From positions 240,746-304,745 of the forward strand of contig CAZTNI010000001.1 in assembly GCA_964615415.1 (NCBI GenBank): 64,000 bases of DNA, read 5' to 3'. Both the position numbers and the translations under genes were made by a program. Below, piece after piece: positions 6,940-51,002 of this stretch. The notes below the pieces were generated by a model that was not told where the DNA came from, did no database searches, and saw only the letters and a list, made by a program, of their open reading frames with translations. The DNA comes from an uncultured Candidatus Saccharibacteria bacterium. GTDB lineage: Bacteria; Patescibacteriota; Minisyncoccia; Phycocordibacterales; SBAW01. Numbering within the stretch: the first letter of the stretch is position 1; each line of letters starts with the position of its first letter.

Positions 6940-6960
6940 GCAGTCACGTATAATCTGTAT

Positions 6961-7575: not shown

Positions 7576-7605
7576 TATCGTACGATTTCGAAACGGTCTC
7601 AATAA

Positions 7606-7680: not shown

Positions 7681-7722
7681 CGTGTATAAGAAAAAGCCAC
7701 CCGCTCGGGGTGGCTTGTGTGT

Positions 7723-8154: not shown

Positions 8155-8215
8155 CGCAACCTCCGCTTTCTATATTCGTTCTTCTAAATTTCATTAGAGC
8201 ACATGTTTACGAAAG

Positions 8216-9118: not shown

Positions 9119-9172
9119 GGGGAGTTGTGGTTTTGCACATCTGTAATACTCAAGTATCATATAAGGGTTGTA

Positions 9173-9853
9173 ATGATATATTACGATCGCGTATCCAAAG
9201 TGTACGCAGACAACTCTGTTGCCCTTGAAGACATTTCCTTCTCCGTAGAGCCGGGTGAATTCATTTCCATCGTCGGACATTCAGGGGCTGGCAAAACAAC
9301 TCTCGTAAAACTTCTCCTTGCAGAAGAGCGTCCTTCGACTGGCTCTGTTTTTTTTGAATCTATTAACGTGCACGATATACCACTGCGCAAGATGAACGAC
9401 TTGCGTCGCAAAATAGGTACCGTCTTTCAAGACTTTCGCCTGTTGCCGCAAAAAACTGCATACGAAAACATTGCGTTTGCTATGGAAGCTGCTGGTCGCA
9501 GCGAGGAAGAGATTCATTCTGATGTGCCGCACGTGCTTGAGCTTGTGGACCTGGGCGACAAAATGAATAACTTCCCCGGTGAGCTTTCCGGTGGTGAGCA
9601 GCAACGTGTTGCTATAGCTCGCGCTATCGTGAATCAGCCTGACGTTATCGTTGCGGACGAGCCGACGGGCAACCTCGACCCCGTTAACACATTTGAAGTG
9701 GTGCAAATTTTAAAGAAGATTAACGACCTTGGCACAACTATTATTCTGACTACGCACAATAAAGGAGTGATAGATTCCTTGAAGCGACGCGTCATCACCA
9801 TGGATCGTGGCAAAATTATTCGCGATGACAGGGAAGGTAAATATATATTGTAA
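9173..9853 (+). CDS. ftsE: Cell division ATP-binding protein FtsE
   Basis: MIYYDRVSKVY…GHSGAGKTTL Walker A, the LSGGEQQRVAIARA signature, and the gene sits immediately upstream of an ftsX-like permease. Confidence 0.85.
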   Translation: MIYYDRVSKVYADNSVALEDISFSVEPGEFISIVGHSGAGKTTLVKLLLAEERPSTGSVFFESINVHDIPLRKMNDLRRKIGTVFQDFRLLPQKTAYENIAFAMEAAGRSEEEIHSDVPHVLELVDLGDKMNNFPGELSGGEQQRVAIARAIVNQPDVIVADEPTGNLDPVNTFEVVQILKKINDLGTTIILTTHNKGVIDSLKRRVITMDRGKIIRDDREGKYIL

Positions 9854-9855
9854 CT

Positions 9856-10791
9856 ATGTCGTGGATAACTATTAAACGTATTTTCCGTGCAGGTTTTTTG
9901 GACTTTTGGCGCAACGGCTTTGTTTCGTTTGCTTCGGTCCTTATGATGATCTTCACGCTATTTGTGATAGGTCTCGCTACCTTTACGGGGGTTATCCTTA
10001 ATACCACGCTTGAAGAGTTCCGCAGCAAGGCCGACCTTAACGTCTACTTTACTACCGACGCATCAGAAGACCGTATTGTTGCGCTTCAGCAGTCGCTGCG
10101 CGAGCTTCCGGAAGTTGAGTCGGTTGAATATCTCTCTCGAGAGGAAGCACTTGCACAGTTTCGTGAACGACACAAAAACGACCAGTTGACCCTTCAGGCT
10201 CTTGAGGAGCTTGGAGACAATCCACTAGGCGCTGTATTGAACGTTAAAGCAAAAGACATTACACAGTACGAACGCATTGCAACATTCGTGCGTGGCGAAG
10301 AAGAAGCAGTGGGTCCGGGCGAAGTGCCGATCATCGACAAAATTAACTATTACGACGAGCAGCATCGCGCTGCGCTTGAGCGACTGAGTTCTATTACCGA
10401 CTCGGCGCGGCTGATCGGGCTCGTTATCATCATAATTTTCGTCAGTCTTACGATCGCTATTTCGTTTAATACACTCCGTCTCGCTATCTACTCGTCTCGC
10501 GAAGAGATTTCAGTTATGCGCTTGGTGGGTGCGGGCACCGGATACATCCGCTTACCGTTTATGGTGGAAGGAGTTCTGTATGGTCTTATTGCAGGAGTCG
10601 TAACACTGGTATTGTTTTACCCACTTACGTGGTGGTTGGGGAGTTCTACAGCAGGCTTCTTCGGAGGGATTAATGTCTTCCAATACTACCTCAGTCACTT
10701 CTTGTATTTCTTCTTGTTGATCGTCGGCTCGGGGGTCGTTCTTGGAGCAGTTGCCAGCTTCCTTGCGGTACGGCGCTATCTCAAGATATAA
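9856..10791 (+). CDS. ftsX: Cell division permease FtsX
   Basis: 311-aa ORF with an N-terminal TM helix, a periplasmic domain and a C-terminal 3-TM FtsX-like permease domain. It is adjacent to ftsE. Confidence 0.8.
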   Translation: MSWITIKRIFRAGFLDFWRNGFVSFASVLMMIFTLFVIGLATFTGVILNTTLEEFRSKADLNVYFTTDASEDRIVALQQSLRELPEVESVEYLSREEALAQFRERHKNDQLTLQALEELGDNPLGAVLNVKAKDITQYERIATFVRGEEEAVGPGEVPIIDKINYYDEQHRAALERLSSITDSARLIGLVIIIIFVSLTIAISFNTLRLAIYSSREEISVMRLVGAGTGYIRLPFMVEGVLYGLIAGVVTLVLFYPLTWWLGSSTAGFFGGINVFQYYLSHFLYFFLLIVGSGVVLGAVASFLAVRRYLKI

Positions 10792-10807
10792 CTAGAGACG
10801 AACTATT

Positions 10808-12463
10808 ATGCTTTTTTCTAAGGACAAGGCGACGAAGACCCCTAAATACATCTTCGTCGTCGGCGGCGTTATGTCTGGTGTAGGCAAGGGTGTTGCAACC
10901 TCGGCTATTGGTCTCATTTTAAAATCGAAGGGGTTTGGTGTTACGGCAATTAAAATAGACCCGTACATCAACGTAGACGCGGGCACTATGAACCCAACCG
11001 AGCATGGCGAAGTATTCGTGCTCGATGACGGCGACGAGACCGACCAAGACATGGGCAACTACGAGCGCTTCCTCGACACAACGCTGACGCGTACCAACTA
11101 CATGACTACTGGTCGTGTGTACCAAGAGGTTATTCGCAAAGAGCGTAACTTGGAATATAAGGGCCGCAATGTGCAAGTGGTGCCGGATGTGCCTGCAGAA
11201 GTAATCCGTCGCATTAAGGAGGCACAGCAAAAGGCAGCAGCCGATATTACGATTATCGAAGTGGGTGGCACTGTGGGCGAGTATGAAAATATCCTCTTCC
11301 TTGAGGCTGCGCGCATGTTGAAGCAAGAGTGTCCGGACGACGTTGCGATTGTGATGGTCTCCTACTTGCCCGTGCCACACAACATTGGCGAGATGAAGAC
11401 TAAGCCAACGCAGCATGCGTCGCGCGAATTGAACAGTGCCGGGTTGCAGGCAGATATTATTCTTGCGCGCGCGGTGGTGCCGCTCGATGAAAAGCGCAAG
11501 GAAAAAATCGCCATCTTTTGTAACGTGCGCCCAGAGCGTGTCATCTCTGCGCCAGATGTCGAGAGTATTTACGATGTGCCGCTTAACTACGAAAAGGATG
11601 GGTTAGGAGATACCCTCTGCGATGTGCTCGGACTCGAACATCGCACCAGCGACCTCTCGAAGTGGGAGCAGTTTGTCGCAAAGTCTAAAAATGGCACCAA
11701 GGAAGTAAAAATCGCGATGGTGGGCAAGTATTTTAAGTCGGGAGAGTTTGTACTTTCCGACGTATACATTTCCGTACTCGAGGCGCTCAAGGCAGCTGGC
11801 TACCATCAAGATGTAAAAACAAAAATCACCTATTTTGATTCCGAAGAATTTGAAAAAGATCCTGTTAAGTTAGAAGAGCTTTCAAACTATGCTGGCATTA
11901 TCGTACCGGGTGGCTTTGGCAGCAGGGGTGTTGAAGGTATTGTGGCGGCTATTACATTTGCGCGTGAGCATAAAATTCCGTACCTCGGCCTTTGCTACGG
12001 CATGCAGTGGATGGTTATTGAATATGCACGCAATAAAGCTGGGCTCGCCGGAGCTAATACGAAAGAAGTGTCCGAAACGACCCCACACCCGGTTATCGAT
12101 GTGATGGCTGAGCAGGTAGATAAAATTTCAAGTAAAAACTACGGGGGTACCATGCGCCTCGGTGCGTACCCATGCGTACTGAAAGACGGCAGTGTTGCGC
12201 ATCAGGCATACGGTAAACAAGAAATCTCTGAACGCCATCGCCATCGCTACGAAGTAAATCCGCGCTATGTAGAGCAGCTTGAAGCCGCGGGGCTCGTGTT
12301 TAGTGGCCGTTCGCCCAATGGTACACTGATGGAGATAGCTGAACTGCCGAGCGACGTGCATCCATTTTTTGTTGCGTCGCAGTTTCATCCTGAACTCCTG
12401 TCTCGTCCACTGTCGCCGCACCCGCTTTTTGCTGCATTTATACGTGCAGCTCTAAAGAAGTAA
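10808..12463 (+). CDS. pyrG: CTP synthase
   Basis: N-terminal synthetase motif GGVMSGVGKG, and a C-terminal glutamine amidotransferase domain (LGLCYGMQ, HRHRYEVN). Confidence 0.9.
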   Translation: MLFSKDKATKTPKYIFVVGGVMSGVGKGVATSAIGLILKSKGFGVTAIKIDPYINVDAGTMNPTEHGEVFVLDDGDETDQDMGNYERFLDTTLTRTNYMTTGRVYQEVIRKERNLEYKGRNVQVVPDVPAEVIRRIKEAQQKAAADITIIEVGGTVGEYENILFLEAARMLKQECPDDVAIVMVSYLPVPHNIGEMKTKPTQHASRELNSAGLQADIILARAVVPLDEKRKEKIAIFCNVRPERVISAPDVESIYDVPLNYEKDGLGDTLCDVLGLEHRTSDLSKWEQFVAKSKNGTKEVKIAMVGKYFKSGEFVLSDVYISVLEALKAAGYHQDVKTKITYFDSEEFEKDPVKLEELSNYAGIIVPGGFGSRGVEGIVAAITFAREHKIPYLGLCYGMQWMVIEYARNKAGLAGANTKEVSETTPHPVIDVMAEQVDKISSKNYGGTMRLGAYPCVLKDGSVAHQAYGKQEISERHRHRYEVNPRYVEQLEAAGLVFSGRSPNGTLMEIAELPSDVHPFFVASQFHPELLSRPLSPHPLFAAFIRAALKK

Positions 12464-12472
12464 CGACTCACT

Positions 12473-13423
12473 ATGCAACCGTATATCGTGGCTGGTCTTG
12501 GAGTAGGCGCGCTGCTCGCGGCTTTTGTAGCATGGCAGCCGGTGGTGCCGGTAGCTCAATTGACGTGGGTGAGCGAACAAGAGGAGCAGATAGAGCAAAA
12601 AGCGACAATACTCTTTGGTGGTGATGCGTTTTTCGATCGTTCCGTGCGTACAACGATGGAAGAAAAAGGAGCGCAGTATGTATTTTCGTGCATAGCACCG
12701 CTCTTAAAAGCAGCAGACCTTACGGTATTAAACCTCGAAGGGCCTATTACTGACAACGCATCAGTGAGTGTGGGGAGTGAAGTGGGTTCGCCAAATAATT
12801 TTAGATTTACGTTCCATCCAGATGTAGCGCCGCTTTTGGTAGAGAACAATGTTCGTGTGGTAAACCTTGGTAACAATCACATATTAAATTTTGGATACGA
12901 CGGCGTAGGGCAAACTACCCGCTATCTTGATGCGGCAGGTGTTGCATACTTTGGCGAGCCGGATGCGTATACGGTTACAAAAATGGTGGTCAATGAGATC
13001 CCGCTTGCGTTTATTGGCTATAACGAATTTGGCGGCAGCGCACCGAAAACGCTCGAGCAGATCAAAGTAGCCGTAGAGGAAGGATACCTCCCGGTCGTAT
13101 ATGCACACTGGGGGATCGAGTATGAAACCATCTCGTCTCTTCCGGCGCAGCAGTTGGCGCGCATGTTTGTGGACGCGGGCGCGAAGTTGGTGATAGGCTC
13201 GCATCCGCATGTTATCCAGCAAAGCGAGCTCTACAACGGCGTCCATATTTACTACTCGCTCGGGAATTTCATATTCGACCAATACTGGAACGATGAGGTG
13301 CGCACGGGCTTATTGGTAGAAGCGACGTTCGACAAAAGTGGAGTGCTGTCAGTAGAAGAGGTGCGCACGTACCTTGAACGAGATCGTCGCACGTGTCCGC
13401 TCCCAGAGCCGTTAGTCAACTAA
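12473..13423 (+). CDS. CapA/PGA-biosynthesis family metallophosphatase, membrane-anchored
   Basis: ILFGGDAFFDRS, HWGIEYE and GSHPHVIQ are CapA (poly-gamma-glutamate synthesis) family signatures. There is an N-terminal TM helix. Confidence 0.7.
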   Translation: MQPYIVAGLGVGALLAAFVAWQPVVPVAQLTWVSEQEEQIEQKATILFGGDAFFDRSVRTTMEEKGAQYVFSCIAPLLKAADLTVLNLEGPITDNASVSVGSEVGSPNNFRFTFHPDVAPLLVENNVRVVNLGNNHILNFGYDGVGQTTRYLDAAGVAYFGEPDAYTVTKMVVNEIPLAFIGYNEFGGSAPKTLEQIKVAVEEGYLPVVYAHWGIEYETISSLPAQQLARMFVDAGAKLVIGSHPHVIQQSELYNGVHIYYSLGNFIFDQYWNDEVRTGLLVEATFDKSGVLSVEEVRTYLERDRRTCPLPEPLVN

Positions 13424-14026
13424 TACGGCGTAGACGATTAAGCGGTGTGTATACGTATTCAATTTTTTATCAAACTTCCCCGCACAGGTAATAAGGTTAA
13501 GGCGGGGTTTATCTGCGCGTTCAAATAAAAAGTAGGTTGAAACGTCCTTTAGGTTGGTTAGTTTTGCTTCCTCAACTTTAAAATGTAGCGTCTCTCCGTC
13601 GTTGTTGGTGACGTAGATGTCGTCGCCGGGTTGTACGCGACGTAAATTCCCAAACGCTGCATACACATGAGCGTCGAGCACCGCACTACCTACTTCGCCT
13701 GGAGTAACGCCGCCCGTGTACCAGCCAACGTTTTTACTCTTGCCGTTCGGTACGTCCATTTCACCCTCGGGAGTAATGCCGACTCCTACAATAGAAGCTT
13801 TCAGTTTAATAGAGGGGATGGAAAGGCGGGTCGGAGTAGCACGTGTGGGGAGCGAAGGAGGCGGTACGATTTGTGAGGGTGGTACGACGACTGTTTCGGG
13901 AACGCCTGCTTGCGGCGGAAGTGGAGAGGAGGCGGAGCTAAATGCAGAAAGTGTTTCTTCTTGCACGGCGACGCAAAAAAATATAACGGCACTGAACATG
14001 ACTGAAAAAAGCACTGTGTTTCGCAT
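13412..14026 (-). CDS. Sortase family transpeptidase
   Basis: Active-site TLxTC motif (RLNLITCAG) with the conserved His region, and an N-terminal TM anchor. Start taken at the ATG at 14026; an alternative TTG start lies at 14092. Confidence 0.7.
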   Translation of the reverse strand: MRNTVLFSVMFSAVIFFCVAVQEETLSAFSSASSPLPPQAGVPETVVVPPSQIVPPPSLPTRATPTRLSIPSIKLKASIVGVGITPEGEMDVPNGKSKNVGWYTGGVTPGEVGSAVLDAHVYAAFGNLRRVQPGDDIYVTNNDGETLHFKVEEAKLTNLKDVSTYFLFERADKPRLNLITCAGKFDKKLNTYTHRLIVYAVLVD

Positions 14027-14176
14027 GAAGTGCGATAATTGTAGACGACCAGTTTTGCCTCGTCCAATGAAAGGCTCACAAAATTCAGACAAAAATTCAT
14101 ACTGACTGAAGCGGTTGAGATTCGGGCCTTTTTCAGGTATCTTTGGACTGTATTGCCGGGATCGTTCTCGGTAGAT

Positions 14177-14247
14177 TGCCAGATCGTCTAATGGTAGGAC
14201 AACGGACTCTGAATCCGTTTATCTTGGTTCGAATCCAAGTCTGGCAG
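14177..14247 (+). tRNA. tRNA-Gln (anticodon CTG)
   Basis: TGCCAGATCGTCTAATGGTAGGACAACGGACTCTGAATCCGTTTATCTTGGTTCGAATCCAAGTCTGGCAG. The acceptor stems are perfectly complementary, the D-arm is the short Gln type, and the anticodon loop is CTCTGAA. Confidence 0.85.
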
Positions 14248-31724: not shown

Positions 31725-32867
31725 ATGCTTGTACGTGCATGTGCTCTTTGTATTGCGGTACTTATGCCGTTTGCTGCTCTCTATGCAGCGCCGCTGAACA
31801 CGCCCTCATTTGAAGTGGGAGGATGGCTACCGTATTGGCGAGAAGATGAAGGGACTGCTGTTGTAAAAAAACACTTAGATGCGCTTACGACGATCCATCC
31901 CTTTGGCTACACGGTAGACAAAAATGGTGCGCTCCATGACGAGATGGGTGTACGGAAAGAACCGTGGCGGAGTTTTAACGCGGCAGTGCAAGAAACAGCA
32001 GTGCGGCTAATCCCGACTGTTATCTGGCACGACGGCGCTGCTATCCACGATGTGTTAAGCGACCCTATACAACGCAAAGCGCACGTTACAGACATTGTGC
32101 GCACGGTAGAGCGCGAAGGGTTTGATGGCATCGACATCGACTACGAAGCAAAGCGTGCGGAAACGAACCCGTTTTTTACGCTCTTTTTAAAAGAGCTCTA
32201 CGCGGCAATAGGGAGTAAGTTTGTATACTGCACTATCGAGCCGCGTACGCCGCCAGAATCTGCATTTTCTGTCGTGCCAAAAAATCTTCAGTACGCAAAC
32301 GACTACACCGCGCTGCGCGCGTATTGTGACCGTGTCGTTATTATGGCGTACGACCAAGGGACGATTGACCTCACTCTTAATAAAGCGGCAAGGGGTGCGC
32401 CGTATATTCCTGTTGCAGATGTGGCATGGGTAGAAAAAGTGGTGGAGTTGGCGCTGCAGACTCTTCCCAAAGATAAAGTAATTATCGGCATTCCAACGTA
32501 CGGGTACGAGTACACGATAACGCCACTCCAGAAAGGGTATCGCTATGACCGGTTAGGAGCGTTTAATCCGGGCTACGCGCTTGCTATTGCTGAGCGTCTC
32601 GGTATCACACCAACTCGCACGCTTTCTGGCGAACTTGCCGTCACGTATATTGCATCCTCTTCGCCGCTGTATACCGGGGCAAGTATCGCTGCTGGACCAA
32701 GTTTTTCTAAAAACGCTACTGTGTATAGCCTCCTGTGGTGGAGTGATGCTGTGGCTATTAAGGAAAAGATAGACCTCGCTAAAAAATTAGGAGTGCAAGG
32801 GGTGTCTATTTTTAAACTCGATGGGAGTCACGACCCTAAATTGTGGGATATACTTTTGGGATACTAA
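31725..32867 (+). CDS. Glycoside hydrolase family 18 (chitinase-like) protein, secreted
   Basis: GH18 catalytic motif GFDGIDIDYE, with an N-terminal signal/TM. Confidence 0.75.
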   Translation: MLVRACALCIAVLMPFAALYAAPLNTPSFEVGGWLPYWREDEGTAVVKKHLDALTTIHPFGYTVDKNGALHDEMGVRKEPWRSFNAAVQETAVRLIPTVIWHDGAAIHDVLSDPIQRKAHVTDIVRTVEREGFDGIDIDYEAKRAETNPFFTLFLKELYAAIGSKFVYCTIEPRTPPESAFSVVPKNLQYANDYTALRAYCDRVVIMAYDQGTIDLTLNKAARGAPYIPVADVAWVEKVVELALQTLPKDKVIIGIPTYGYEYTITPLQKGYRYDRLGAFNPGYALAIAERLGITPTRTLSGELAVTYIASSSPLYTGASIAAGPSFSKNATVYSLLWWSDAVAIKEKIDLAKKLGVQGVSIFKLDGSHDPKLWDILLGY

Positions 32868-35045: not shown

Positions 35046-35915
35046 ATGCACGACGGTAAACGATTTCAGCCTCTGGTCTACCTGCTTGTAGTTGTGTTCA
35101 TTGTGCTTGTTGGATGGCTCTTGTGGATAGACAAAGGAGTGGGAGGACCAGGATTCATACAGGCTGTTCAGTATACGTGTGCGCAGGAAAAGATAATCCA
35201 GGCTTCGTTTTATGAAGAAGAGGTGCGCCTTGTGCTGAATGACGGTCGTCGCATGACTTTGCCGCAAACTATTTCTGCGTCGGGTATTCGCTATGCGAAC
35301 GCAGACGAGTCGTTTGTATTCTGGAGCAAAGGTAACACTGCCTTTATTACTGAAGGTACGTCTGGGAAAGAAACGTATAGCAACTGTGTGACGGCCGGTG
35401 CCGCCCCGGGAGCACAGGAAGAGGAGTGGGAGACGTTTAGCAAACCATTTTCAAACTACGCTATCCAATATCCCTCTACCTATGCAGTGAATCAAAACTA
35501 TCTCTACACTGCGCTCGGTCCGGGTAAAGAAATTCGCGGCGTAAAGTTTACTATCCCACAGTCTCTTTCAATAGGAACAAATCTTTCTTCCGACACGGGT
35601 CTGAGTGTTGAGGAAATTGCTAACCCGGCGTCCTGCAGTCCAACACGCTTTGTCTACGATGCGCAGGATATCCGCACCGTGTACGAGCACGGTATTGAGT
35701 ACTCCGTGGCAGACAGTGGAGGTGCGGCAGCAGGGAACCTGTACGAGGAACATGTCTACGCTATTCCCGGCACGTCGCCCTGCATAGCTATCCGCTATTT
35801 CATCCACTCAACAAATATTGGTAACTACGAACCAGGCGCAGTCCGCGAGTTCGACAAAGAAGCGCTTATAGCAGAGTTCGACCGGATCCGCAGTACGCTG
35901 AACGTCTCGCGCTAG
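35046..35915 (+). CDS. MliC-domain (membrane-bound lysozyme inhibitor of C-type lysozyme) protein with additional C-terminal domain
   Basis: MliC hallmark …YTCAQEKIIQASFYEE…LPQTISASGIRYANADESFVFWSKGNTAF (the SxSGxRY motif). Confidence 0.65.
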   Translation: MHDGKRFQPLVYLLVVVFIVLVGWLLWIDKGVGGPGFIQAVQYTCAQEKIIQASFYEEEVRLVLNDGRRMTLPQTISASGIRYANADESFVFWSKGNTAFITEGTSGKETYSNCVTAGAAPGAQEEEWETFSKPFSNYAIQYPSTYAVNQNYLYTALGPGKEIRGVKFTIPQSLSIGTNLSSDTGLSVEEIANPASCSPTRFVYDAQDIRTVYEHGIEYSVADSGGAAAGNLYEEHVYAIPGTSPCIAIRYFIHSTNIGNYEPGAVREFDKEALIAEFDRIRSTLNVSR

Positions 35916-35973: not shown

Positions 35974-36852
35974 TTGGAGGGGTGCATGGACGCCAGAGTA
36001 ACTGAACGGAGGCCGAAGGTCGAGACGCTTGTCTCGAAGCTTGACCCAAACGAAGTAATCCGGTTCGCCGATATGCAGTACGTGCTCGAGCGCTACGGAC
36101 CGGACGTGGAGCCGCATAAGTCCCGAGAAGCAGAGGCGAACCTGCAGTTCCTTTCCTCGCTTAATGGGGCGCCTGGCTCTAAGGAGGAAATTTATCTTAT
36201 GCGCGTGCGCAACATTCTGTTTGCGTATGCGCGTGACAGAGTCGAGCGGGCCATCAAGTACGACAAGGCAAAAAAGAAGGTGGCGGACCGTTATCGCTAC
36301 ATTCAGGAAAGCCTGCGTCGAGGATGGTGGCAGCGCTTGCTCTACGCGCTGCTCTCGAAAGTTGGGGCCATTACTGTTTTTGCTACATTCGGCTACGGAT
36401 TAGCACAAACACTTGCCCCGATTATTCCCGAAGTGCTGAGCCAGTTTACGGGCGAGACAGGAGGTTCGTTTCTTGTAACGCTGGTGAGTGGCTTCATCGG
36501 CCTTGTGGTGCAGAACGCGCTCGTGGATTATCGCAAGGCAAAAGTAGATCGCGAGCGAGAGTTCCTCTTCCAGTCGGCCAAGCAGGCATACCGGGAAGCG
36601 AAGGAATTTCTCTATAACCAGTACTGGAAAGAGTGCGTCGATGCGTGGGAGGAGTACACCGAAGTTCCGTACGCGCGCATCTCGTTCCATCACGAGATCG
36701 TTCGACAAGAGCTCCGTGAAGAGCGCGAACACGAGCGCGAACTTCGCTTCCTCCGCCTGACCGAACTCCAGCGGGCATGGCGCTACGCGCACGGCCTTTG
36801 GAAGCGCAGCGTGGCTCGGATCAAAGCGCGGCGGAAGTCGGTCAAGACGTAA
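35974..36852 (+). CDS. Hypothetical protein with central TM hairpin and charged coiled-coil regions
   Basis: 292-aa ORF with no recognisable domain. Confidence 0.45.
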   Translation: MEGCMDARVTERRPKVETLVSKLDPNEVIRFADMQYVLERYGPDVEPHKSREAEANLQFLSSLNGAPGSKEEIYLMRVRNILFAYARDRVERAIKYDKAKKKVADRYRYIQESLRRGWWQRLLYALLSKVGAITVFATFGYGLAQTLAPIIPEVLSQFTGETGGSFLVTLVSGFIGLVVQNALVDYRKAKVDREREFLFQSAKQAYREAKEFLYNQYWKECVDAWEEYTEVPYARISFHHEIVRQELREEREHERELRFLRLTELQRAWRYAHGLWKRSVARIKARRKSVKT

Positions 36853-36892
36853 GTGTGGGCGCCCTAGCAATAGGGCGCCCTTTTTCTTTTCC

Positions 36893-36956
36893 GGATTATC
36901 CACACATATGTGTATCTTGTGTATTGCGCTCAAAATGTGTGTGCTACTATACACAT
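36893..36956. promoter_or_regulatory. Candidate LexA operator palindromes upstream of lexA
   Basis: A perfect 12-bp palindrome ACACATATGTGT at 36896-36909 and a second dyad ATGTGT-N10-ACACAT at 36935-36956, directly 5' of the lexA start. Confidence 0.5.
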
Positions 36957-37619
36957 ATGCAGCAGCTACTCACTTTTAAACAACAGCGGGTGCTCTCCGA
37001 GCTTCGCTCACATATTGCAGAGCATAACGAGCCACCAACGCTCGAAGAGCTTCGCAAAACCCTTGGGTTCGAGTCTCTCCGTACGGTGACGCAATACTTA
37101 GACATTCTCGAGCGTAAGGGCTACATCGTCCGCCATAAAGGTTTGAAGAAAAATATCGAACTACGTAATGCAGACGGTGGGTGGGGTACAGTATCTATCC
37201 CTGTTATCGCCAATGTCGGCTGCGACGACCTCTCCGTCTATGCACAAGAACAAGCGGACGAATTTATTGAAGTCGACAAAAAAATTGTCGATGAAGCGGG
37301 GGAAATTGTTGCAGTGCGTGCCGTCGGCGAGTCTATGTTAGACGCAGGTATTAAAAGCGGGGACTATATTCTGGTGCAATTTACAAACAATGTGCAAACC
37401 GGCGACCGTGTTGCAGCAATAGTGGGCGACATGGTCACCGTAAAGCGGCTCGAGAAAAAAGACGGCGTCACTATCCTCTGGCCAGAGTCGAAAGATCCTA
37501 AATACAAACCGATTATTCTCCACGAAGATTTTAAAATCACCGGCAAAGTACTCTGTGTTATTTCTCAGCCAGATGTCGAGATTACGGAAGTGGTTCCTCT
37601 CAAAGAAGACGAATACTAA
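36957..37619 (+). CDS. lexA: LexA repressor (S24 peptidase family)
   Basis: N-terminal wHTH (…LEELRKTLGFESLRTVTQYLDILERKGYI…) and a C-terminal S24 domain with VGESMLDAGI (Ser) and VKRL (Lys). The start was trimmed to the ATG at 36957. Confidence 0.8.
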   Translation: MQQLLTFKQQRVLSELRSHIAEHNEPPTLEELRKTLGFESLRTVTQYLDILERKGYIVRHKGLKKNIELRNADGGWGTVSIPVIANVGCDDLSVYAQEQADEFIEVDKKIVDEAGEIVAVRAVGESMLDAGIKSGDYILVQFTNNVQTGDRVAAIVGDMVTVKRLEKKDGVTILWPESKDPKYKPIILHEDFKITGKVLCVISQPDVEITEVVPLKEDEY

Positions 37620-41018: not shown

Positions 41019-44000
41019 ATGAATTTCTTCCCACTTCTTATCGCGGGCCCAGGCAAAATAGCACTTCGATTGATGGGAATGATTCTTGTCGTCTCATTTT
41101 TTCTTTCTCCTCTTGCCCCTGTGTTTGCGCAAGAAGCAGATCCTGGAGCTGGTAGCGAAACTCCTGTTGCTGAAGAGTTGCTAACTGAAGAACCCTCTGA
41201 AGCAGATACTTCTACAGAAACTTCTGAAGAACCTGTGGTTGAAGAATCTGATCCAACGCCAACTGACCCAACAGAAGAAACTTCTTCTGAAGAAGTTTCA
41301 GAGTCGGAAATTTCCGAACTCACTGAAGAATCGGAAGAAGACTCACTACTAGAAGAAGAACTTGAACCAGAAGAAGACTCGCTGATGTCATCATCAGGAG
41401 GAGATCAGGGTACTGGAGAAGCTGTCGATTATGCAGCAGCTGGTGCACAAGCGAAGGTGGATGCATTCGGAGCTCTTGTGCAGAAAATTCAAATTGAAGT
41501 TCCTCCTGGTCGCAACGGTCTTCAGCCAGATTTATCTCTGCTTTACAACAGTCTGCAGTATGAAGATGGAAGTCTGGTGGGTTTTGGATGGGGGTTAACG
41601 ATACCGTATATTGAACGACTCAATCGCACTGGTGTTGATCGTTTGTATACCGATAATTATTTTTCGTCCTCTATGTATGGAGAATTAGCCTCCACGAGTG
41701 TCCCAGGTGAATATCGTCCAAGAACTGAAAACGGAGATTTTGTTAAATTTGTTTTTCAAAATAATATCTGGACTGCGTACGATAAACAGGGAACACAATA
41801 CAAATACGGTTCGACTACAGGATCTCAGGTGTACGACACTGCAAGCTCAACACAGGTTGGTGTATGGATGCTGCAGGAAGTTCGCGATACAAACAACAAC
41901 TACATAAAATATAACTATCAAAAAAGTGATAATCAGATTTATCCTTCGACGATTATCTATACAGGCAACGAATCTACCGACGGCATCTTCTCTGTAAGCT
42001 TTTCAAGACAAACACGACCAGATCCTATCTTTAGCTACAAGTATGGTTTTTTGGTAGAGACAAAAGATAGAATAAACCAAATTACAGTAGCGGTGAGTAG
42101 CTCGACTGTCCGCTCATACGCGCTTGCGTATACCTCCGGAAATAACGGGTATCGTTCTATGCTTTCTTCTGTAACTGAAACGTATGTTAATCCTGATGGT
42201 ACTAGTGTTGCGTATGCGCCGTGGCAGTTTGCTTATACTAACCAAACGCTTTCCTTTACTGATCAGGTTGAGAAAGAGGAAGGGGGATATAGGTCGCCAG
42301 CTTTCGTGCGTACCGACTTAAATGGCAACGGTCTTCTCGATATTGTCGCTTCATTTGTTGACTGGTCTCCTGCAGTGCAGAAAAATCTCCGTGTCATAAA
42401 CAATGGAAACTTTTCATTTACTAGCTCGGGTACGTTCTCTCCGGGATCAACAGACGTTCAAGTTACTTGGGCAAATGCTAATCCTTCTCCTAGTTGGCTT
42501 GTTTCCAGCGATCCTGGTGTGCGCCTCATGGACATAAATGGTGATGCGCTGCCAGATGTCGTGCAAAGTTATGTGTGCCAAGTAACATGCTCGACCTCAA
42601 TACAACAATATTTCTTGAATCTTGGTAACGGTCAGTGGCAGTCTACTGCAGCTACTACAACAGGATGGAATTATATTGTACGTGACCAACCAGGCACTTC
42701 TATTCCGCACGCCACAATCGCTATCATTGGAAACGTAAACGGCGACACTGTAGATGATATTTTTCCATACGAAGTAAATTATTTCGCAAGTACAGGTGGA
42801 GGTTCTCCACGTTGGACAAGCAACCAAGGTCAGCTGGTAGATCTTAACCATGACGGATTGGATGATGCATTTGCTCGTTTCGGTACAACTGCTTCTACAA
42901 GTATTAATAGAGGGGGGACAATAGGAATTACCACTGCATCAACCTCATTCAGCTACACAGCGACCTTTAATGGGCCGAGCGCCTATGAAGACAACGTAGA
43001 CAAAGGAATTCGCATCATGGATATAAATAATGATGGTCTTCCGGACCTCGTACGCTCATATCTTTTCTCGGGCGGTTACTCTTCTCATGGTGATGGCCAG
43101 TATGTGCCGCAAGATACAAGTTCTTCGACGCAAATTTATATAAACACAGGTGTTGGGTGGACCAGAATGCAAAACCCTCCAGCTATTCCCGTTATCTCAA
43201 ATCCTTCAAGTCAAAGTGGTTTTTGGACAGGTGCTCAACTTATTGAAGCGGTGTGGGACCAGGATGGTGATGGAGATGCAGAGATTGGTACCTATACCAA
43301 TAACATGAGTCGACAAGATTTGTTGAAGCAAATTACTTTGCCGACGGGAGGGTATGTGTATGCAACAAGTACTCCTACAACACAGCAATTCACCGGTTCT
43401 CAGGCTCACCACCCGAATTCTGTAGTACCTGTGTGGACTGTGTCGGAAATTACACACGATGATGGAAATGGTACACGAGAGACCAGTCGCTATTCTTACA
43501 AAGACGGAACACTCTGGTATGGTGGCATTAATAATCGAAAATATGCAGGCTTCGCAAGCACTACAGAGTCATACTATGGTCTTACTACCAAGTATTACCA
43601 TCAGGGAGATGAGACAGATTCTTCTCGTGGGGAATACCAAGATTCATTTGCAAAGATTGGCAAAATGTATCGTGTAGAGAGAACTAATAACGATGGAGTG
43701 GTGTATGCAAAGACTATCTACAAATGGGATCAGGCTACCACTACGTACGGAAATGTGTTCGCAAAATTAGTGCAGAAAGTAGACATGGAGTACAACGGCG
43801 ACGGTACTCACAAGGATCGTGCAGAGACATATACCTACGACAATGCCTCGGGCAATCTTACTGAAAAGAAGGAGTGGGGAGAGGTGACAGCATCAGACGA
43901 TGGAAGTTTCTCTGACACTGGGAGCGACATATTTGTCACAACGTACACCTATGCAACAGTAAACGCTTCTTCTACTGTTAGTCTTTTAGCGTCACAGTTA

Positions 44001-47000
44001 AAAACAGATCAAGGCGCTAATACTGTTAATGAGTCGAAGTTCTATTACGATTCGCAGTCATTTGGCTCCGCAACAGTAGGTAACCTTACAAAAGCAGAAA
44101 AGAGAATTAACCCAACTACTTTTGCAAGTACTACTAAGACATACAACAGCTACGGTTTACCGACCCAACAAAAGGATGAGAATAATAACGCTACTACGTA
44201 TGTATACGATGCGTTTAATCTCTACCCTGCAACCTCTACCAATGCCCTAAGTCAAAGTACAAAATATCAGTACAACTATGCGCTGGGCAAACTTGCTACA
44301 ACTACTGACTCAAATAATCAGACCTGGGTTAAAAAGTATGACGGCCATGGCCGTTTGCTTGAAGTGCAAGTGCCTGACCCTGCAACCTCAACTGCGCGTG
44401 TAATAAAGACTACCTACACGTATACCGATACTCCGCTTGCTGTGTCGGTAAAAAAGAGTTCGTACCTCGACGCTACTAACATAGTAGATTCTTACACGTA
44501 CTACGATGGTTTGGGGCATGCGATTCAAACCAAACAAGAAGCAGAAGGGGGAGAGTGGATTACTAAAGATGTAAGTTACAACGTGCGTGGTCGAGTATTC
44601 ACAGAAACACTTCCGTATCCAACAACAAATTACGTAAAGAGTTCTCCTACTGCTACTACAACCCTGTATACCAACTACATGTATGATCCGCTTAACCGAG
44701 TAACAGAATCACACACGGTCGTTGGCACTACAACAAATACGTATGATGACTGGAAGAAGACAGTTACGAACCCGCTTGGCATTGCGAAGTCATTCTATAA
44801 CGATGCGTACGATAATCTAGTTCGTGTAGATGAGACTAATAGCGGCTCTACTTATACAACGTTATATACGTGGGATGGAAATGGAGCGCTAACGGGTATA
44901 ACGGATGCTCTCAGTAACATACGCTCGTTTACGTACGACATGTTGGGTCGTCGCACTCAGGCAACAGACCTGCGTGCTTCTGGAGACGGCACATACGGTA
45001 CGTATACATATACCTACGATCCGGCGGGGAACATGAAGTCTAAGGTAACTCCGGTTGGGTCAACCATTAACTACACCTACGATGCGCTTAATCGCCTCAA
45101 GACAGAAGATTATACAGGTCAGGCAGGCACAGAAACCACCTATACCTATGACGCATGTACGCTCGGTGCAGGGAAGTTGTGCGTGGCAAGCAGTACTGCT
45201 TCAGTCGTGGGGTATGCATATACCCCAGCGGGTCTTGTTAAGACTGCAACCACAACTGTGCTAGGCACGCCAACCGTATTTACTACATCGAGTACATATG
45301 ATCGGCAGGGAAATCAGACAACTCTTACATACCCTGACGGTATGGAAGTGAAATACACCTATAATGCGGGTGGCTACATAGAAACCGTTCAGAAGAAAGA
45401 GGCGAGCGAAGGATCATTCTCAAACATAGTGTCTAACTTTAATTACTCACCCGTTGGTCAAGTAAGTCGAACCGAGTATGCAAATGGAGCGGTAACTACC
45501 AATACGTATGATCCTGCCACTCTCTACAGACTCAGCAATAAACAAACTATTCTCGGTGGTTCGCAGCAGGCACAAAACATCAGCTACAGCTACGACGCTT
45601 TGGGAAATATTTTGCAAGTTACCGATGCGTCAAATACGGCAGCTGCAAAAACGGTTAACTACTCGTACGACGACTTGTCTCGCCTTGTTACTGCATCTAC
45701 CACCAACGCAACAAGTAGTCCGAACTATAGATACACATATGCATACAATGCTCTGGGTAATATCACGAACGGTCCACTCGGGGTCTACACATACGCAGGT
45801 ACGAACTATGCAAACCCGCATGCAGCAACTGCTATAGCGACAACTTCAGGAGGTGGAGGAGGCGTTGCGACAACCACGACTCATACAGTATTTGCCGACG
45901 CCCTTACCCCAGGATGGAACGATTGGTCATACAATGCGGTACTCGACCTTAACGCAACTACCACGTACGCAGGAAGCAAAGCTATCAAGGTTACCTACTC
46001 AGTCGCTTGGGGTGGTTCATATTTGCAAAAGACTGCTGGAATCCAAGTTGGTACCTCTACTGCGCTTCAACTCGCCTTGCGTTCAACAAGTTCATCGCCT
46101 GACGTTACCATCGATATATATGGTACCAACGACGCGTATCTTGGATACGCTGACCCTACTGACTATATCGGCGGTCCTATTGCTGCTAACACGTGGTATC
46201 TACTTACTATCCCGTTTTCAGATTTTGGCGCCACTTCAACTATCAGTGGCATCGTAGTTGCACGCGACACTCCAGGTGTTCTCTATATCGATGAATTAAA
46301 GACTGTTGCCACATCTACAGGCGGAGGAGGTTCTGTGGCAACTACCACGCTTGCATACGATGCGAACGGCAACCTTACCTCAGACGGTACATTTACCTAT
46401 ACATGGGATTATCTCAACCGCATGACTCAGTCTGGTAACGGTACTGCCACATCAACCTATGCATACGATCAAGATGGTAATCGCGTAAAAATAGTTGAAG
46501 CAGGCGTCACCACAATCTTCCCAAACAAGTTCTACAACGCAATGCTTGGTGGTGCTGGCACTACTACAAAGCACATATATGCGGGAGACATGCTCCTTTC
46601 TACGATAGAGAATACAAATACTGCCGCTGCGACAACCACTACACACACGGTGTTTACCGACGCACTTGCTGCGGGCTGGAACGACTGGTCGTATAACGCT
46701 ACGCTCAACGTTAACGAAACTGCAGTTGTCTACAGCGGTGCTAAGTCAGCAAAGATCACATACAGCGCACCATGGGGCGGAGCATACATACAAAAAACGG
46801 GTGTAAATGTATCAACCTCTACGGCACTGCAGTTCGCAATCCGCCAACCTGTCACAACTGTTGATGTCGACCTCGATATCTATGGCGCAAACGATCAATA
46901 CCTTGGATACGTTAATATTGAGAATTTTGTGCCCGGAGGTGTGCTCCTTTCCAATACATGGCAGGTGGCAACGATACCGCTGTCAGCTATGGGCGCAACT

Positions 47001-48059
47001 TCTACGATCACGGGTATTGTGTTTGCGCGAGATGCAACAGGTACTCTGTATTTGGATGATATAAAATTCATCGCAACCTCTACCTCAGGAAGCCCTGCAA
47101 CATCAACGGTCCGCTACATCCATACAGATCATCTTGGTGGTACCAACGTTGTCACAAATGCGAGTGGTGCGGTGGTAGAAACAATTGACTACTATCCATA
47201 TGGAGAGACTCGTCTTGATGCGAAGGTTGGGACTTATGGAGGAGAAAAGAATAAATATGCGGGTACTGAGTATGACGCAGGTAGTGGTTTGAACTACATG
47301 CAGGCACGTTATCAAAGCCCAACTCGCGGAAACTTCATATCGCAGGATCCGGTGTTCTGGGAGATTGATATTACTAATGATGGTAAAGCAGTTCTCTCAA
47401 ACCCTCAACTTCAAAATTCATACAGTTATGCTGGCAATAATCCAATCGTAAGTAAAGATCCATCTGGAAGATTCCTAGACACCATTCTCGATTTAGGATT
47501 TATAGCTTACGATGTATACAAAGTTGGCCAGGCGGCCTTCACTGGCGGAAATGTTGGTGAGCAGTTAGGATACTTAGGGCTTGATGTAGCTGGGGCAGCC
47601 GTACCATTTGTCACAGGTGCGGGAGTAGCTGCTAGAGGAGTTAAAGCTGCTAATGCGGTAGCAGATGCAGCCGGCGGCGCCAACAAAGCAGGTAATGCTG
47701 CTCAGGCGGCTAATACCGCAGTAAAATCACTACCGGACTCGACGTTGGTCTGCAGAGGAGGAGGTTGCTCGGTGGAAAGTTTTATTAAGGGCAGTAATGA
47801 AGGAAGGGCGGGTCTTAATCCAAGTCCAACAACTCCTCTTACTGGGGTATCAGTAAATATGGGGGGTTCAAAAAATGCACTTATTAGCAATTTGCCTGGT
47901 GACTACCCTAAAGCAGGTTTTACATTCACCAATCAAATACAAAAACTTGGTGGCAATGCAGTATCTAGCCCTTCTCTTAATAATCCTTTCCACGGTCTAA
48001 TCAACGGCCTCAGTGCCCAGCAATTGAATAATATTTTTAAAGTAGAAAAGATAAAATAA
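41019..48059 (+). CDS. Giant secreted Tc-toxin/RHS-type polymorphic toxin: SpvB/TcB-like N-terminal domain, FG-GAP-like region, YD/RHS repeats, RHS repeat-associated core, unassigned C-terminal toxin domain
   Basis: 2346-aa ORF with a signal peptide and an acidic linker. The SpvB motif (…GLQPDLSLLYNSLQYEDGSLVGFGWGLTIPYIERLNRTGVDRLY…) is followed by many YD repeats (YTYDALNRL, YSYDALGNI, YAYDANGNL, YAYDQDGNR). The RHS core reads RYIHTDHLGGTNVVTNASGAVVETIDYYPYGE…ARYQSPTRGNFISQDPVFW. Confidence 0.85.
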   Translation: MNFFPLLIAGPGKIALRLMGMILVVSFFLSPLAPVFAQEADPGAGSETPVAEELLTEEPSEADTSTETSEEPVVEESDPTPTDPTEETSSEEVSESEISELTEESEEDSLLEEELEPEEDSLMSSSGGDQGTGEAVDYAAAGAQAKVDAFGALVQKIQIEVPPGRNGLQPDLSLLYNSLQYEDGSLVGFGWGLTIPYIERLNRTGVDRLYTDNYFSSSMYGELASTSVPGEYRPRTENGDFVKFVFQNNIWTAYDKQGTQYKYGSTTGSQVYDTASSTQVGVWMLQEVRDTNNNYIKYNYQKSDNQIYPSTIIYTGNESTDGIFSVSFSRQTRPDPIFSYKYGFLVETKDRINQITVAVSSSTVRSYALAYTSGNNGYRSMLSSVTETYVNPDGTSVAYAPWQFAYTNQTLSFTDQVEKEEGGYRSPAFVRTDLNGNGLLDIVASFVDWSPAVQKNLRVINNGNFSFTSSGTFSPGSTDVQVTWANANPSPSWLVSSDPGVRLMDINGDALPDVVQSYVCQVTCSTSIQQYFLNLGNGQWQSTAATTTGWNYIVRDQPGTSIPHATIAIIGNVNGDTVDDIFPYEVNYFASTGGGSPRWTSNQGQLVDLNHDGLDDAFARFGTTASTSINRGGTIGITTASTSFSYTATFNGPSAYEDNVDKGIRIMDINNDGLPDLVRSYLFSGGYSSHGDGQYVPQDTSSSTQIYINTGVGWTRMQNPPAIPVISNPSSQSGFWTGAQLIEAVWDQDGDGDAEIGTYTNNMSRQDLLKQITLPTGGYVYATSTPTTQQFTGSQAHHPNSVVPVWTVSEITHDDGNGTRETSRYSYKDGTLWYGGINNRKYAGFASTTESYYGLTTKYYHQGDETDSSRGEYQDSFAKIGKMYRVERTNNDGVVYAKTIYKWDQATTTYGNVFAKLVQKVDMEYNGDGTHKDRAETYTYDNASGNLTEKKEWGEVTASDDGSFSDTGSDIFVTTYTYATVNASSTVSLLASQLKTDQGANTVNESKFYYDSQSFGSATVGNLTKAEKRINPTTFASTTKTYNSYGLPTQQKDENNNATTYVYDAFNLYPATSTNALSQSTKYQYNYALGKLATTTDSNNQTWVKKYDGHGRLLEVQVPDPATSTARVIKTTYTYTDTPLAVSVKKSSYLDATNIVDSYTYYDGLGHAIQTKQEAEGGEWITKDVSYNVRGRVFTETLPYPTTNYVKSSPTATTTLYTNYMYDPLNRVTESHTVVGTTTNTYDDWKKTVTNPLGIAKSFYNDAYDNLVRVDETNSGSTYTTLYTWDGNGALTGITDALSNIRSFTYDMLGRRTQATDLRASGDGTYGTYTYTYDPAGNMKSKVTPVGSTINYTYDALNRLKTEDYTGQAGTETTYTYDACTLGAGKLCVASSTASVVGYAYTPAGLVKTATTTVLGTPTVFTTSSTYDRQGNQTTLTYPDGMEVKYTYNAGGYIETVQKKEASEGSFSNIVSNFNYSPVGQVSRTEYANGAVTTNTYDPATLYRLSNKQTILGGSQQAQNISYSYDALGNILQVTDASNTAAAKTVNYSYDDLSRLVTASTTNATSSPNYRYTYAYNALGNITNGPLGVYTYAGTNYANPHAATAIATTSGGGGGVATTTTHTVFADALTPGWNDWSYNAVLDLNATTTYAGSKAIKVTYSVAWGGSYLQKTAGIQVGTSTALQLALRSTSSSPDVTIDIYGTNDAYLGYADPTDYIGGPIAANTWYLLTIPFSDFGATSTISGIVVARDTPGVLYIDELKTVATSTGGGGSVATTTLAYDANGNLTSDGTFTYTWDYLNRMTQSGNGTATSTYAYDQDGNRVKIVEAGVTTIFPNKFYNAMLGGAGTTTKHIYAGDMLLSTIENTNTAAATTTTHTVFTDALAAGWNDWSYNATLNVNETAVVYSGAKSAKITYSAPWGGAYIQKTGVNVSTSTALQFAIRQPVTTVDVDLDIYGANDQYLGYVNIENFVPGGVLLSNTWQVATIPLSAMGATSTITGIVFARDATGTLYLDDIKFIATSTSGSPATSTVRYIHTDHLGGTNVVTNASGAVVETIDYYPYGETRLDAKVGTYGGEKNKYAGTEYDAGSGLNYMQARYQSPTRGNFISQDPVFWEIDITNDGKAVLSNPQLQNSYSYAGNNPIVSKDPSGRFLDTILDLGFIAYDVYKVGQAAFTGGNVGEQLGYLGLDVAGAAVPFVTGAGVAARGVKAANAVADAAGGANKAGNAAQAANTAVKSLPDSTLVCRGGGCSVESFIKGSNEGRAGLNPSPTTPLTGVSVNMGGSKNALISNLPGDYPKAGFTFTNQIQKLGGNAVSSPSLNNPFHGLINGLSAQQLNNIFKVEKIK

Positions 48060-48060
48060 T

Positions 48061-48513
48061 ATGAAAATAAAAAATGAATCAGATTTTGTAAATGCAGATA
48101 GTAAATTGAATCTGCGGAAAATCTCTTCTAATGAAATAGAGATAACCGACGTCTATGACATCTGGGATGGGCCTTTAAGTGGTAGCTGTCTCTGGGAAAA
48201 TAAAGATTATTATTTTTTCTCTTTTGATCAACTTGAGGATGATAAATCTGGTGATCGCTGGCCAAGAAAATACATTTTAGTTAGCTTAGATTCTGAGCAA
48301 AAGCAAACTGAAGAAGAATTAAAAAACCTTTATTCGGCTTTGAAAAAAGGTGAATTTACCGCCGAAGAATATAGCAACAAATTAGAAAGAATTCCAAAGT
48401 TACAAATAGAAAATAAGCAAATTGTTGGATGGTTTGATTCTGAAGATGTTGAAAAAAATGGAACTCCAACAAGATTCATGCAATCCTATTTTTCGTGGAA
48501 AGAAAAGAATTAA
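48061..48513 (+). CDS. Candidate cognate immunity protein of the RHS C-terminal toxin
   Basis: 150-aa ORF starting 2 nt after the RHS stop. It is markedly AT-rich relative to the RHS gene. That is the typical position and composition for an RhsI-type immunity gene. Confidence 0.55.
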   Translation: MKIKNESDFVNADSKLNLRKISSNEIEITDVYDIWDGPLSGSCLWENKDYYFFSFDQLEDDKSGDRWPRKYILVSLDSEQKQTEEELKNLYSALKKGEFTAEEYSNKLERIPKLQIENKQIVGWFDSEDVEKNGTPTRFMQSYFSWKEKN

Positions 48514-50201: not shown

Positions 50202-50450
50202 ATGGAATTAGTATTACAAATAGGCATTCTTGTGATAGGAGGCTGGTTTGCTTATATAGGAGGTCGGACTTTGTTCTCAAAAAAATACTACGTATCAAAG
50301 ATTGAAAATATAAAAGGTAAAACGGTTGATAATGCATATAAAAATCTGCCACGCTGGAGAATATGGTTTACTCGGTACGATTATTCGACACAATGGCTGA
50401 TTCTTGGTGTCGGGCTACTCACTCTTTTTGTCTTTAGTTTATTTAAGTAA
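50202..50450 (+). CDS. Small 2-TM membrane protein (orphan immunity-like)
   Basis: 82 aa, AT-rich. First of three tandem small TM genes. Confidence 0.4.
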   Translation: MELVLQIGILVIGGWFAYIGGRTLFSKKYYVSKIENIKGKTVDNAYKNLPRWRIWFTRYDYSTQWLILGVGLLTLFVFSLFK

Positions 50451-50456
50451 ATTCTT

Positions 50457-50723
50457 ATGGATGTTCAACAACTTATACTCACTATCCTTGGAACTGGTTT
50501 AGTCATATTTTGCTACTTTAACTGGGTTAAAGCCAAAGATAAGGAATTTCTATTCTTAGGAGTATCTGCTCTGATAGGTTTGTTATTTGCGGGTGCAAAA
50601 TATCTTCCTGTTTCTTCTGAATTTAATCAAGCAAGGGCCGGCATAGGAGTTATCGTTCTTTCAATTCTGTTCCTTTTAGTTTTACGAATGGGATATAAGT
50701 TGTGGTTCAAAAAAAGAAAATGA
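50457..50723 (+). CDS. Small 2-TM membrane protein (orphan immunity-like)
   Basis: 88 aa, AT-rich. Confidence 0.4.
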   Translation: MDVQQLILTILGTGLVIFCYFNWVKAKDKEFLFLGVSALIGLLFAGAKYLPVSSEFNQARAGIGVIVLSILFLLVLRMGYKLWFKKRK

Positions 50724-50750
50724 TCCATATTTAAGTTATTAACATATCTT

Positions 50751-51002
50751 ATGTTGGATTCTTTTTTAATCGTATTGGTCCAGGCTGGAATCTCAGTGAT
50801 TGTAGGAGTAATGGCAATTTTTTACAGGAAACGCCTGACTCGTGAATTTACAGCAAAATTTATCCAGGTATATGGAAATTTTTTCAATTCTAAAAAAGTT
50901 TTTACTTCAAAGTTCTTCAATGATTATTTAGAAGTGGGTTTTGTAGTATTTGGAATTTGCGCCTTGATATTTGCTTTTTTCAATATTGTTAGGTCGATAT
51001 AA
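50751..51002 (+). CDS. Small 2-TM membrane protein (orphan immunity-like)
   Basis: 83 aa, AT-rich. Confidence 0.4.
   Translation: MLDSFLIVLVQAGISVIVGVMAIFYRKRLTREFTAKFIQVYGNFFNSKKVFTSKFFNDYLEVGFVVFGICALIFAFFNIVRSI

Follow-up and report, generated by a model that had tools for sequence, protein, structure and literature searches.

The Rhs locus and its product

We analyzed a stretch of 64,000 nucleotides (nt) from the genome of an uncultured Candidatus Saccharibacteria bacterium (GenBank assembly GCA_964615415.1, contig CAZTNI010000001.1, positions 240,746 to 304,745 of the forward strand). Below, "the window" means this whole stretch, and positions are counted from its first nucleotide. The window contains the gene of an Rhs/YD-repeat polymorphic toxin of 2346 amino acids (aa), located at 41019..48059 of the + strand with the stop codon included, according to the list of open reading frames (ORFs) and the translation. 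All other protein-coding features of the window given below with coordinates lie on the same strand. The subject of this work is a pair of related domains, M1 and M2, which are inserted into the repeats of this toxin and which we assign, from profile comparison and structural modeling, to family 8 of carbohydrate-binding modules (CBM8).

Multiple RHS/YD repeats are recognized in the protein both by Pfam (RHS_repeat, 90.3 bits in 8 stretches) and by NCBIfam (YD_repeat_2x; TIGR01643, 56.5 bits). The protein starts with a predicted Sec signal peptide (aa 1-37, 41019..41129), which was read by eye from the sequence, with the presumed cleavage after VFA and before QE. An acidic low-complexity linker follows directly. 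An SpvB/TcB-like N-terminal domain occupies aa 151-309 (41469..41945; Pfam PF03534, 51.1 bits, E 1.5e-13), and the Pfam match to FG-GAP_3, which would stand for the mid-region beta-propeller of a TcB-type N-terminus, is weak (20.3 bits, under the cut-off of 26.9). A long run of RHS repeats extends between the SpvB/FG-GAP part and the Rhs-associated core.

The core, i.e., the plug and aspartyl-protease region, spans aa 2027-2152 (47097..47474). NCBIfam model TIGR03696 (Rhs_assc_core) matches it at aa 2058-2150 with 51.4 bits against a cut-off of 32.5. It aligns to the cores of TccC2 and TccC3 from TcB-TcC cocoons. Among solved structures, these cocoons are the best relatives of the region by sequence. 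The core ends with NPIVSKDPSGRF (aa 2141-2152), a motif of the PxxxxDPxGL type with Arg at the usual Leu position, at which cleavage is predicted.

The remaining 194 aa (aa 2153-2346, 47475..48056) form a variable C-terminal region, for which a toxin role is suggested by its position after the core. It opens with a Gly/Ala-rich hydrophobic stretch (...DVAGAAVPFVTGAGVAARG...), which is followed by about 110 aa of no known type; neither Pfam nor the PDB yielded a match to the region. Two nucleotides past the Rhs stop codon the ORF list has a candidate immunity gene (48061..48513) for an acidic protein of 150 aa, to which no Pfam or PDB family was matched. A counterpart ORF also follows the Rhs homologue of L002, a Candidatus Saccharibacteria metagenome-assembled genome (MAG) that is the closest match among species-representative genomes. 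The C-terminal region and the 150-aa ORF stand where a toxin domain and its immunity gene would be expected, and they may be an uncharacterized toxin/immunity pair.

Two CBM8-family modules among the repeats

M1 occupies aa 1616-1770 (45864..46328; domain E 1.2e-50 with the hidden Markov model (HMM) of the family) and M2 occupies aa 1870-2025 (46626..47093; E 3.3e-55). These limits are HMM envelopes. An earlier note on the window, made from its letters alone, had described here two segments about 55% identical to each other. The similarity is real: BLASTP aligns M1 and M2 with 82 identities in 145 positions (57%, E 4e-56), and every motif quoted in the note (TTTHTVF, GWNDWSYNA, WGGxY, DIYGxND, STIxGIVxARD) is present. 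The coordinates given there were right apart from being 2 nt out of the reading frame; the first TTTHTVF codon is at 45873. The word "tandem" has to be abandoned, as 98 aa of ordinary RHS repeats with visible YD motifs (aa 1772-1869, 46332..46625, aligning to TccC2 residues 443-492 and to homologues) separate M1 from M2 and the two modules sit in two separate hairpins. Gly/Ser linkers, proposed for both modules, do bracket M1 (TTSGGGGG before it and ATSTGGGGS after it), whereas those of M2 are Thr/Ala/Ser-rich instead (NTNTAAATTTT before, ATSTSGSPATST after).

Aligned codon by codon, the DNA of M1 and M2 agrees in 61% of the nucleotides, and the two copies share no long stretch without differences. 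The same Rhs protein was recovered from two contigs, and the contig shown here was seen in four samples. The low DNA identity together with the recovery on two contigs means that the duplication is old and is not an artifact of assembly.

No Pfam family was matched by M1 or M2. Scattered weak Pfam matches to CBM_11, CBM30, SGBP_B_XBD and CBM_4_9 occur across the members of the module family; we regard them as similarity at the level of the superfamily and not as membership. The CBM8 domain of Dictyostelium is matched by a profile of 55 family members over its full length (PDB 7t7y, E 3.8e-21, profile positions 6-151 against residues 6-150 of a chain of 154), and M1 alone finds it with E 0.0037. 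An AlphaFold2 model built with the 55-sequence alignment has a predicted local distance difference test score (pLDDT) of 96.7 and a predicted template modeling score (pTM) of 0.90. It supersedes a mediocre model (pLDDT 65) from an earlier run on an alignment of two sequences. The Foldseek comparison that the earlier note had proposed was carried out with the better model, and its best match in the PDB is again 7t7y (TM-scores 0.80/0.81, root-mean-square deviation 2.1 Å, 151 columns, 24% identity). The next-best fold neighbors are CBM29, a chain of MtGlu5 (7vt8) and CBM11. Both significant homology to a characterized CBM8 and the beta-sandwich fold were thus found, so that the suggestion of non-YD beta-sandwich modules of a carbohydrate-binding type was borne out and could be narrowed down to one family.

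A conserved Thr-rich N-terminal strand (TTTTHT, TTTTYT or TTTTNT) is common to the starts of M1 and M2 (45864-45893 and 46626-46655) and to the Rhs-embedded modules of the homologues P0013, P0015, P0025 and P0029. The AlphaFold2 model has this N-terminus (residues 2-10) as a beta-strand and not as a disordered linker; therefore part of the apparent linker belongs to the fold.

An exhaustive HMMER search with a profile of M1 and M2 found 1294 cluster representatives at E<=1e-3. Neither M1 nor the 55-sequence module alignment retrieved any relative in word-indexed homologue searches, which in view of the HMMER result reflects the word index and not rarity of the module. Counts given in this work rest on the best 120-150 matches per search. 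Among the best 150 of the 1294 representatives the module is mostly found in arrays of 2-9 copies in non-Rhs proteins; it also occurs there on a GH5 cellulase and on a subtilase/polysaccharide-deacetylase protein.

The binding residues of the Dictyostelium domain (DdCBM8) are known. Substitutions W572A and Y600A abolish binding and Q686A causes an intermediate loss, and W572, W574, Y600 and Q686 are reported to be conserved across the CBM8 family (Liberato et al. 2022, PMC9079177). In M1 and M2 alike, these four positions align to W21, Y23, W49 and A133. In the set of 24 Rhs-embedded modules, aromatic residues are retained at the three positions in 21, 23 and 24 cases, respectively. The position of W572 is even more strictly Trp in Rhs-embedded modules (21 of 24) than in non-Rhs ones (186 of 293), while Gln at the position of Q686 is found in only 9 of the 24 against 180 of the 293. 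Judging by the alignment and the model, M1 and M2 belong to the CBM8 family, with the aromatic platform preserved and the auxiliary residue replaced.

Insertion junctions in the shell

The solved TccC2 aligns on both flanks of M1 and on both flanks of M2, and the window protein is about 140 residues longer at each of the two places. For TccC3, alignments were obtained upstream of M1 and with the core. We took three landmarks from the window protein and mapped them onto homologues with phmmer: Aup (aa 1550-1612, 45666..45854), i.e., the last RHS repeats ahead of M1, which end with ...YANPHAATAIA; Mid, i.e., the repeats between M1 and M2; and Core (aa 2027-2152). The homologues were chosen by Rhs similarity alone, and 41 of them have all three landmarks. 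In 28 of the 41 the landmarks are contiguous (gaps within about 16 aa), Aup running directly into Mid. Inserts of 80 aa or more interrupt this order in the remaining 13: eight between Aup and Mid (site A), five between Mid and Core (site D) and one within Mid, with one protein (P0151) counted twice because it has inserts at both sites.

The multiple alignment locates both junctions. At site A, the insert-free homologues read ...YANPHAVT followed by SVGTTTFAYDLNGN..., and the window protein reads ...YANPHAATAIATTSGGGGG, then M1, then STGGGGSVATTTLAYDANGN...; M1 thus stands between NPHAxT and xxTLAYDANGN. At site D, the insert-free version is ...LLATIEGTGAxxVYSVHTDHL..., and the window protein has ...LLSTIENTNTAAA, M2 and TSGSPATSTVRYIHTDHLGG..., which places M2 in a hairpin turn between ...LLSTIENTN and VRYIHTDHLGG. 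As read from these alignments, M1 and M2 are genuine insertions at precise junctions, each in its own beta-hairpin turn within the last four RHS repeats. Two further turns host CBM8 in Rhs proteins, one after WDYxNRL... (P0023, P0061, P0091) and one after YDQNGNLT (P0094).

The insertion of the modules into the shell near the core, proposed in the earlier note, is therefore confirmed, since TccC2 aligns on both sides and close homologues are insert-free at the same junctions; M2 ends 6 residues ahead of the Rhs core. The rarity that the note ascribed to such inserts was overstated: 13 of 41 close homologues have some insert at these junctions, and lectin-type domains embedded among RHS repeats were already noted in 2012 in the relevant passage of Zhang, de Souza, Anantharaman, Iyer and Aravind (PMC3482391).

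Inserts in homologous proteins

The inserts found at the same junctions in the 13 homologues are CBM8, Laminin_G_3, DUF2341 or unannotated domains. A single-protein locus search gave one GTDB locus, in a Saccharibacteria MAG, and one weak metagenome match without the module. The protein of L002, 54% identical to the window protein over aa 2-1865, has CBM8 at site A, and its site D is filled by about 225 aa of unrelated, Thr/Ser-rich sequence, for which we found no Pfam or PDB match. P0151, 61% identical to the window protein, has the same layout as L002, and P0153 has an insert of 208 aa at site D. Laminin_G_3 stands at site A in P0170 (Candidatus Wildermuthbacteria by source name), DUF2341 with Laminin_G_3 at site A in P0160 and P0245, and two Laminin_G_3 domains at site D in P0207 (Candidatus Peregrinibacteria by source name). 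The close homologues with a source name come mostly from Patescibacteria (Parcubacteria, Wildermuthbacteria, Peregrinibacteria, Sungbacteria, Uhrbacteria, Paceibacterota, Saccharibacteria). The presence of varied lectin-like domains at the insertion sites, as seen in these sequences, suggests a swappable targeting region.

M1 and M2 are mutual best matches (57-59%), while M1 shares only 45% identity with its positional orthologue in L002. Because the two modules are closer to each other than to this orthologue, the comparison suggests that, after the split from the L002 lineage, the gene underwent either an intragenic duplication into site D or a gene conversion.

The Thr/Ser-rich domain of about 210-230 aa at site D is found in L002 (7887-8570, aa 1880-2105 of a protein of 2434 aa) and in the JGI proteins P0151 (aa 1191-1422) and P0153 (aa 506-715). 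It may be a second, unannotated kind of displayed module.

Peptidoglycan- or chitin-active domains were observed in several related Rhs proteins (P0170, P0244, P0201, P0233, P0250). VanY/Peptidase_M15_4 and CHAP are located there C-terminally to the core, and M23 and GH18 appear in precomputed Pfam lists. Such domains suggest a load of cell-wall-degrading enzymes in some of these cocoons.

Genomic surroundings

The genes around the Rhs locus are chromosomal housekeeping genes, e.g., those of CTP synthase, a release factor and glutamate dehydrogenase, and tRNA genes; six of the latter are scattered among the housekeeping genes in the first 15 kb (1184-14247). Upstream of the Rhs gene there are also a GH18 glycosyl hydrolase (31725-32867), a 289-aa protein with an MliC lysozyme-inhibitor domain (35046-35915) and a LexA-like repressor with LexA_DNA_bind and Peptidase_S24 domains (36777-37619). 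On the downstream side, about 2 kb from the Rhs gene, three consecutive small ORFs of 82, 88 and 83 aa (50202-51002), each with two hydrophobic helices, may encode small membrane proteins.

No orphan core or toxin cassettes were found downstream of the Rhs gene, and no synteny between the window and L002 was found outside this gene. The window has no other ORF longer than 798 aa; therefore no TcA-sized partner is encoded nearby.

Possible function of the modules

We consider it rather probable that M1 and M2 are paralogous CBM8 modules spliced into hairpin turns of a Sec-exported Rhs cocoon of the TcB/TcC-fusion type, displayed on its outside and binding a polysaccharide of the target. In this mechanism, Thr/Ser/Gly-rich linkers would tether each module to a hairpin turn, and by analogy the modules would project from the exterior of the shell near the pole of the plug and the toxin. 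They would bind a polysaccharide on the envelope of a target or host cell and hold or concentrate the Sec-secreted cocoon there. The cocoon would then release the C-terminal toxin, already cut off by the core autoprotease. Swap or duplication of an inserted domain would retarget the toxin.

An exterior location is favored because the linkers are flexible (rich in Thr, Ser and Gly), the modules lie N-terminally to the autoprotease motif, so that they are not expected to be released with the toxin, and two domains of about 16 kDa together with the 194-aa toxin would, by estimate, crowd a cavity of the TcB-TcC size. It also has a precedent in the mosquito protein SGS1, the inserted carbohydrate-binding module of which sits on the exterior (PMC9935623).

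Two observations weigh against the display of glycan-binding modules for target recognition. Both M1 and M2 have Ala at the position of Q686; therefore the ligand may differ or the affinity may be weak. Additionally, the lack of a TcA-sized delivery partner in the 64-kb window leaves the passage across the target envelope unexplained.

The main rival is self-anchoring, in which the CBM8 modules would attach to a glycan on the envelope of the producer itself and keep the cocoon on the producer's surface instead of recognizing a target. It is unlikely in our estimation, though it agrees with several facts. A signal peptide is predicted, yet neither Pfam nor NCBIfam detects a wall or membrane anchor in the protein. 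In their passage on such domains, Zhang et al. (PMC3482391) propose that carbohydrate-binding domains tie some toxins to the wall of the producer. Cultivated Patescibacteria are described as epibionts on host bacteria, and with epibiotic growth the host would still meet a toxin that stays on the producer. However, the same passage of Zhang et al. describes anchoring domains as usually N-terminal and suggests a role in target contact for embedded or C-proximal ones. The type of insert also varies between close homologues, which fits diversifying target recognition better than conserved binding to the own wall.

The beta-sandwiches could instead have been co-opted for contacts between proteins (oligomerization, or binding of a partner or receptor protein), or they could be inert spacers. 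The loss of the Q686 equivalent in M1 and M2, as well as the lower frequency of Gln at this position in Rhs-embedded modules than elsewhere, is in line with such a role, as is the finding that other inserts at these junctions cannot be recognized as lectins. But the aromatic triad, mutation of which abolishes binding in DdCBM8, is retained in nearly all Rhs-embedded modules, with Trp at the W572 position kept more strictly than outside Rhs proteins. This conservation makes a non-glycan role less likely, and we rate it as improbable.

That the modules lie inside the cocoon, as an extra cargo or as a part of the plug, could be supposed from the fact that M2 abuts the core, as the core is an internal plug in solved Rhs/TcC structures. 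The considerations that favor an exterior location, i.e., the order of the modules and the autoprotease motif, the crowding of the cavity, the flexible linkers and the position of the SGS1 insert, all speak against it and make it very improbable. Finally, the two explanations that the earlier note itself had named as fatal to its proposal have a negligible chance, because degenerate RHS repeats are ruled out by a profile and a fold that match CBM8 and not RHS, and a duplication in the assembly is ruled out by the DNA divergence of the copies and the recovery of the protein on two contigs.

Beyond the display of glycan-binding CBM8 modules on this one toxin, we tentatively propose a broader idea, which is possible although we place limited confidence in it. 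The hairpin turns of the last four repeats may be a dedicated exchangeable display cassette in the Rhs toxins of Patescibacteria, also called the Candidate Phyla Radiation (CPR). Lectin-like domains (CBM8, Laminin_G_3, DUF2341 and at least one without annotation, about 225 aa long) would be duplicated or swapped in it, retargeting a Sec-secreted cocoon to the surface glycans of particular host bacteria without a TcA or a type VI secretion system (T6SS) partner. The inserts would then be determinants of host range or of host attack in these epibiotic ultra-small bacteria.

Little is known about the ways in which patescibacterial epibionts recognize and attack their hosts. If display and glycan binding of the CBM8 modules hold true, they provide a concrete and testable recognition element, and the pattern of inserts and their absence at fixed junctions provides a simple sequence marker for retargeting across metagenomes. 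CBM8, a small family so far characterized on a cellulase, is extended by M1 and M2 to a toxin-delivery scaffold. The two modules also show that an Rhs shell tolerates the insertion of whole domains at defined turns of its hairpins, a property of use in the engineering of Rhs/Tc cocoons.

Comparison with known systems

The window protein shares with the TcB-TcC cocoons (TcdB2-TccC3, PDB 4o9x and 6h6e; TccC2, 6l7i) the SpvB N-terminus, the RHS shell and the core with an autoproteolysis motif. In contrast to TcC, which has nothing at the two junctions, it carries the extra residues of M1 and M2 there. Unlike TcB-TcC, it combines the B and C parts in a single polypeptide with a predicted Sec signal peptide, and no TcA-sized partner gene lies in the 64-kb window. 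The resemblance to teneurins is restricted to one precomputed match to TEN_YD-shell, labeled "faint"; Pfam detects none of the teneurin domains TTR, FN-plug, NHL propeller, ABD and Tox-GHH.

DdCBM8, from the endoglucanase CelA of D. discoideum (PDB 7t7y and 7t7z, PMC9079177), resembles M1 and M2 in full-length homology, in the fold and in the platform W572/W574/Y600, which is kept as W/Y/W. It differs in being appended to a glycoside hydrolase, whereas M1 and M2 are tethered at both termini as loop insertions and have Ala in place of Q686.

The Rhs toxins in the cited passage of Zhang et al. (PMC3482391) also have lectin-type domains embedded among the repeats, with the proposed function of enhancing the contact with target cells. 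The groups listed in the passage are firmicutes, actinobacteria, proteobacteria and bacteroidetes; CBM8 does not appear in it, nor does it describe fixed insertion junctions adjacent to the core.

The earlier note had likened the protein to the decorated shells of teneurins and Tc toxins. A comparison with decorated shells is apt, but the best precedent is SGS1 of Aedes aegypti (Nat Commun 2023, PMC9935623), in which a carbohydrate-binding module and a carbohydrate-recognition domain of lectin type (lectin-CRD) form insertions within the Rhs/YD repeats and lie on the outer face of the shell; its authors suggest cooperative binding by these two domains. No SGS1 chain is among the top 50 fold matches of our module model. 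Both proteins have beta-sandwich domains of a carbohydrate-binding type as insertions within the repeats, two per protein, which for the window protein follows from the junction alignments with insert-free homologues and TccC2. SGS1 is eukaryotic, and its inserts are located mid-shell and not in the last repeats ahead of the core. Its cargo is formed by helices predicted to be transmembrane, whereas the window protein has an unclassified domain in the toxin position.

The idea of lectin domains embedded in RHS repeats is thus not new, as it dates from 2012, and SGS1 is a structural proof of its principle. Our literature searches on Rhs in Saccharibacteria, CPR or Patescibacteria found no paper that describes Rhs toxins from this group. 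Against the systems compared here, what appears to be new is CBM8 as the inserted domain, the patescibacterial setting, and the fixed core-adjacent junctions with all-or-nothing inserts and exchange of domain types.

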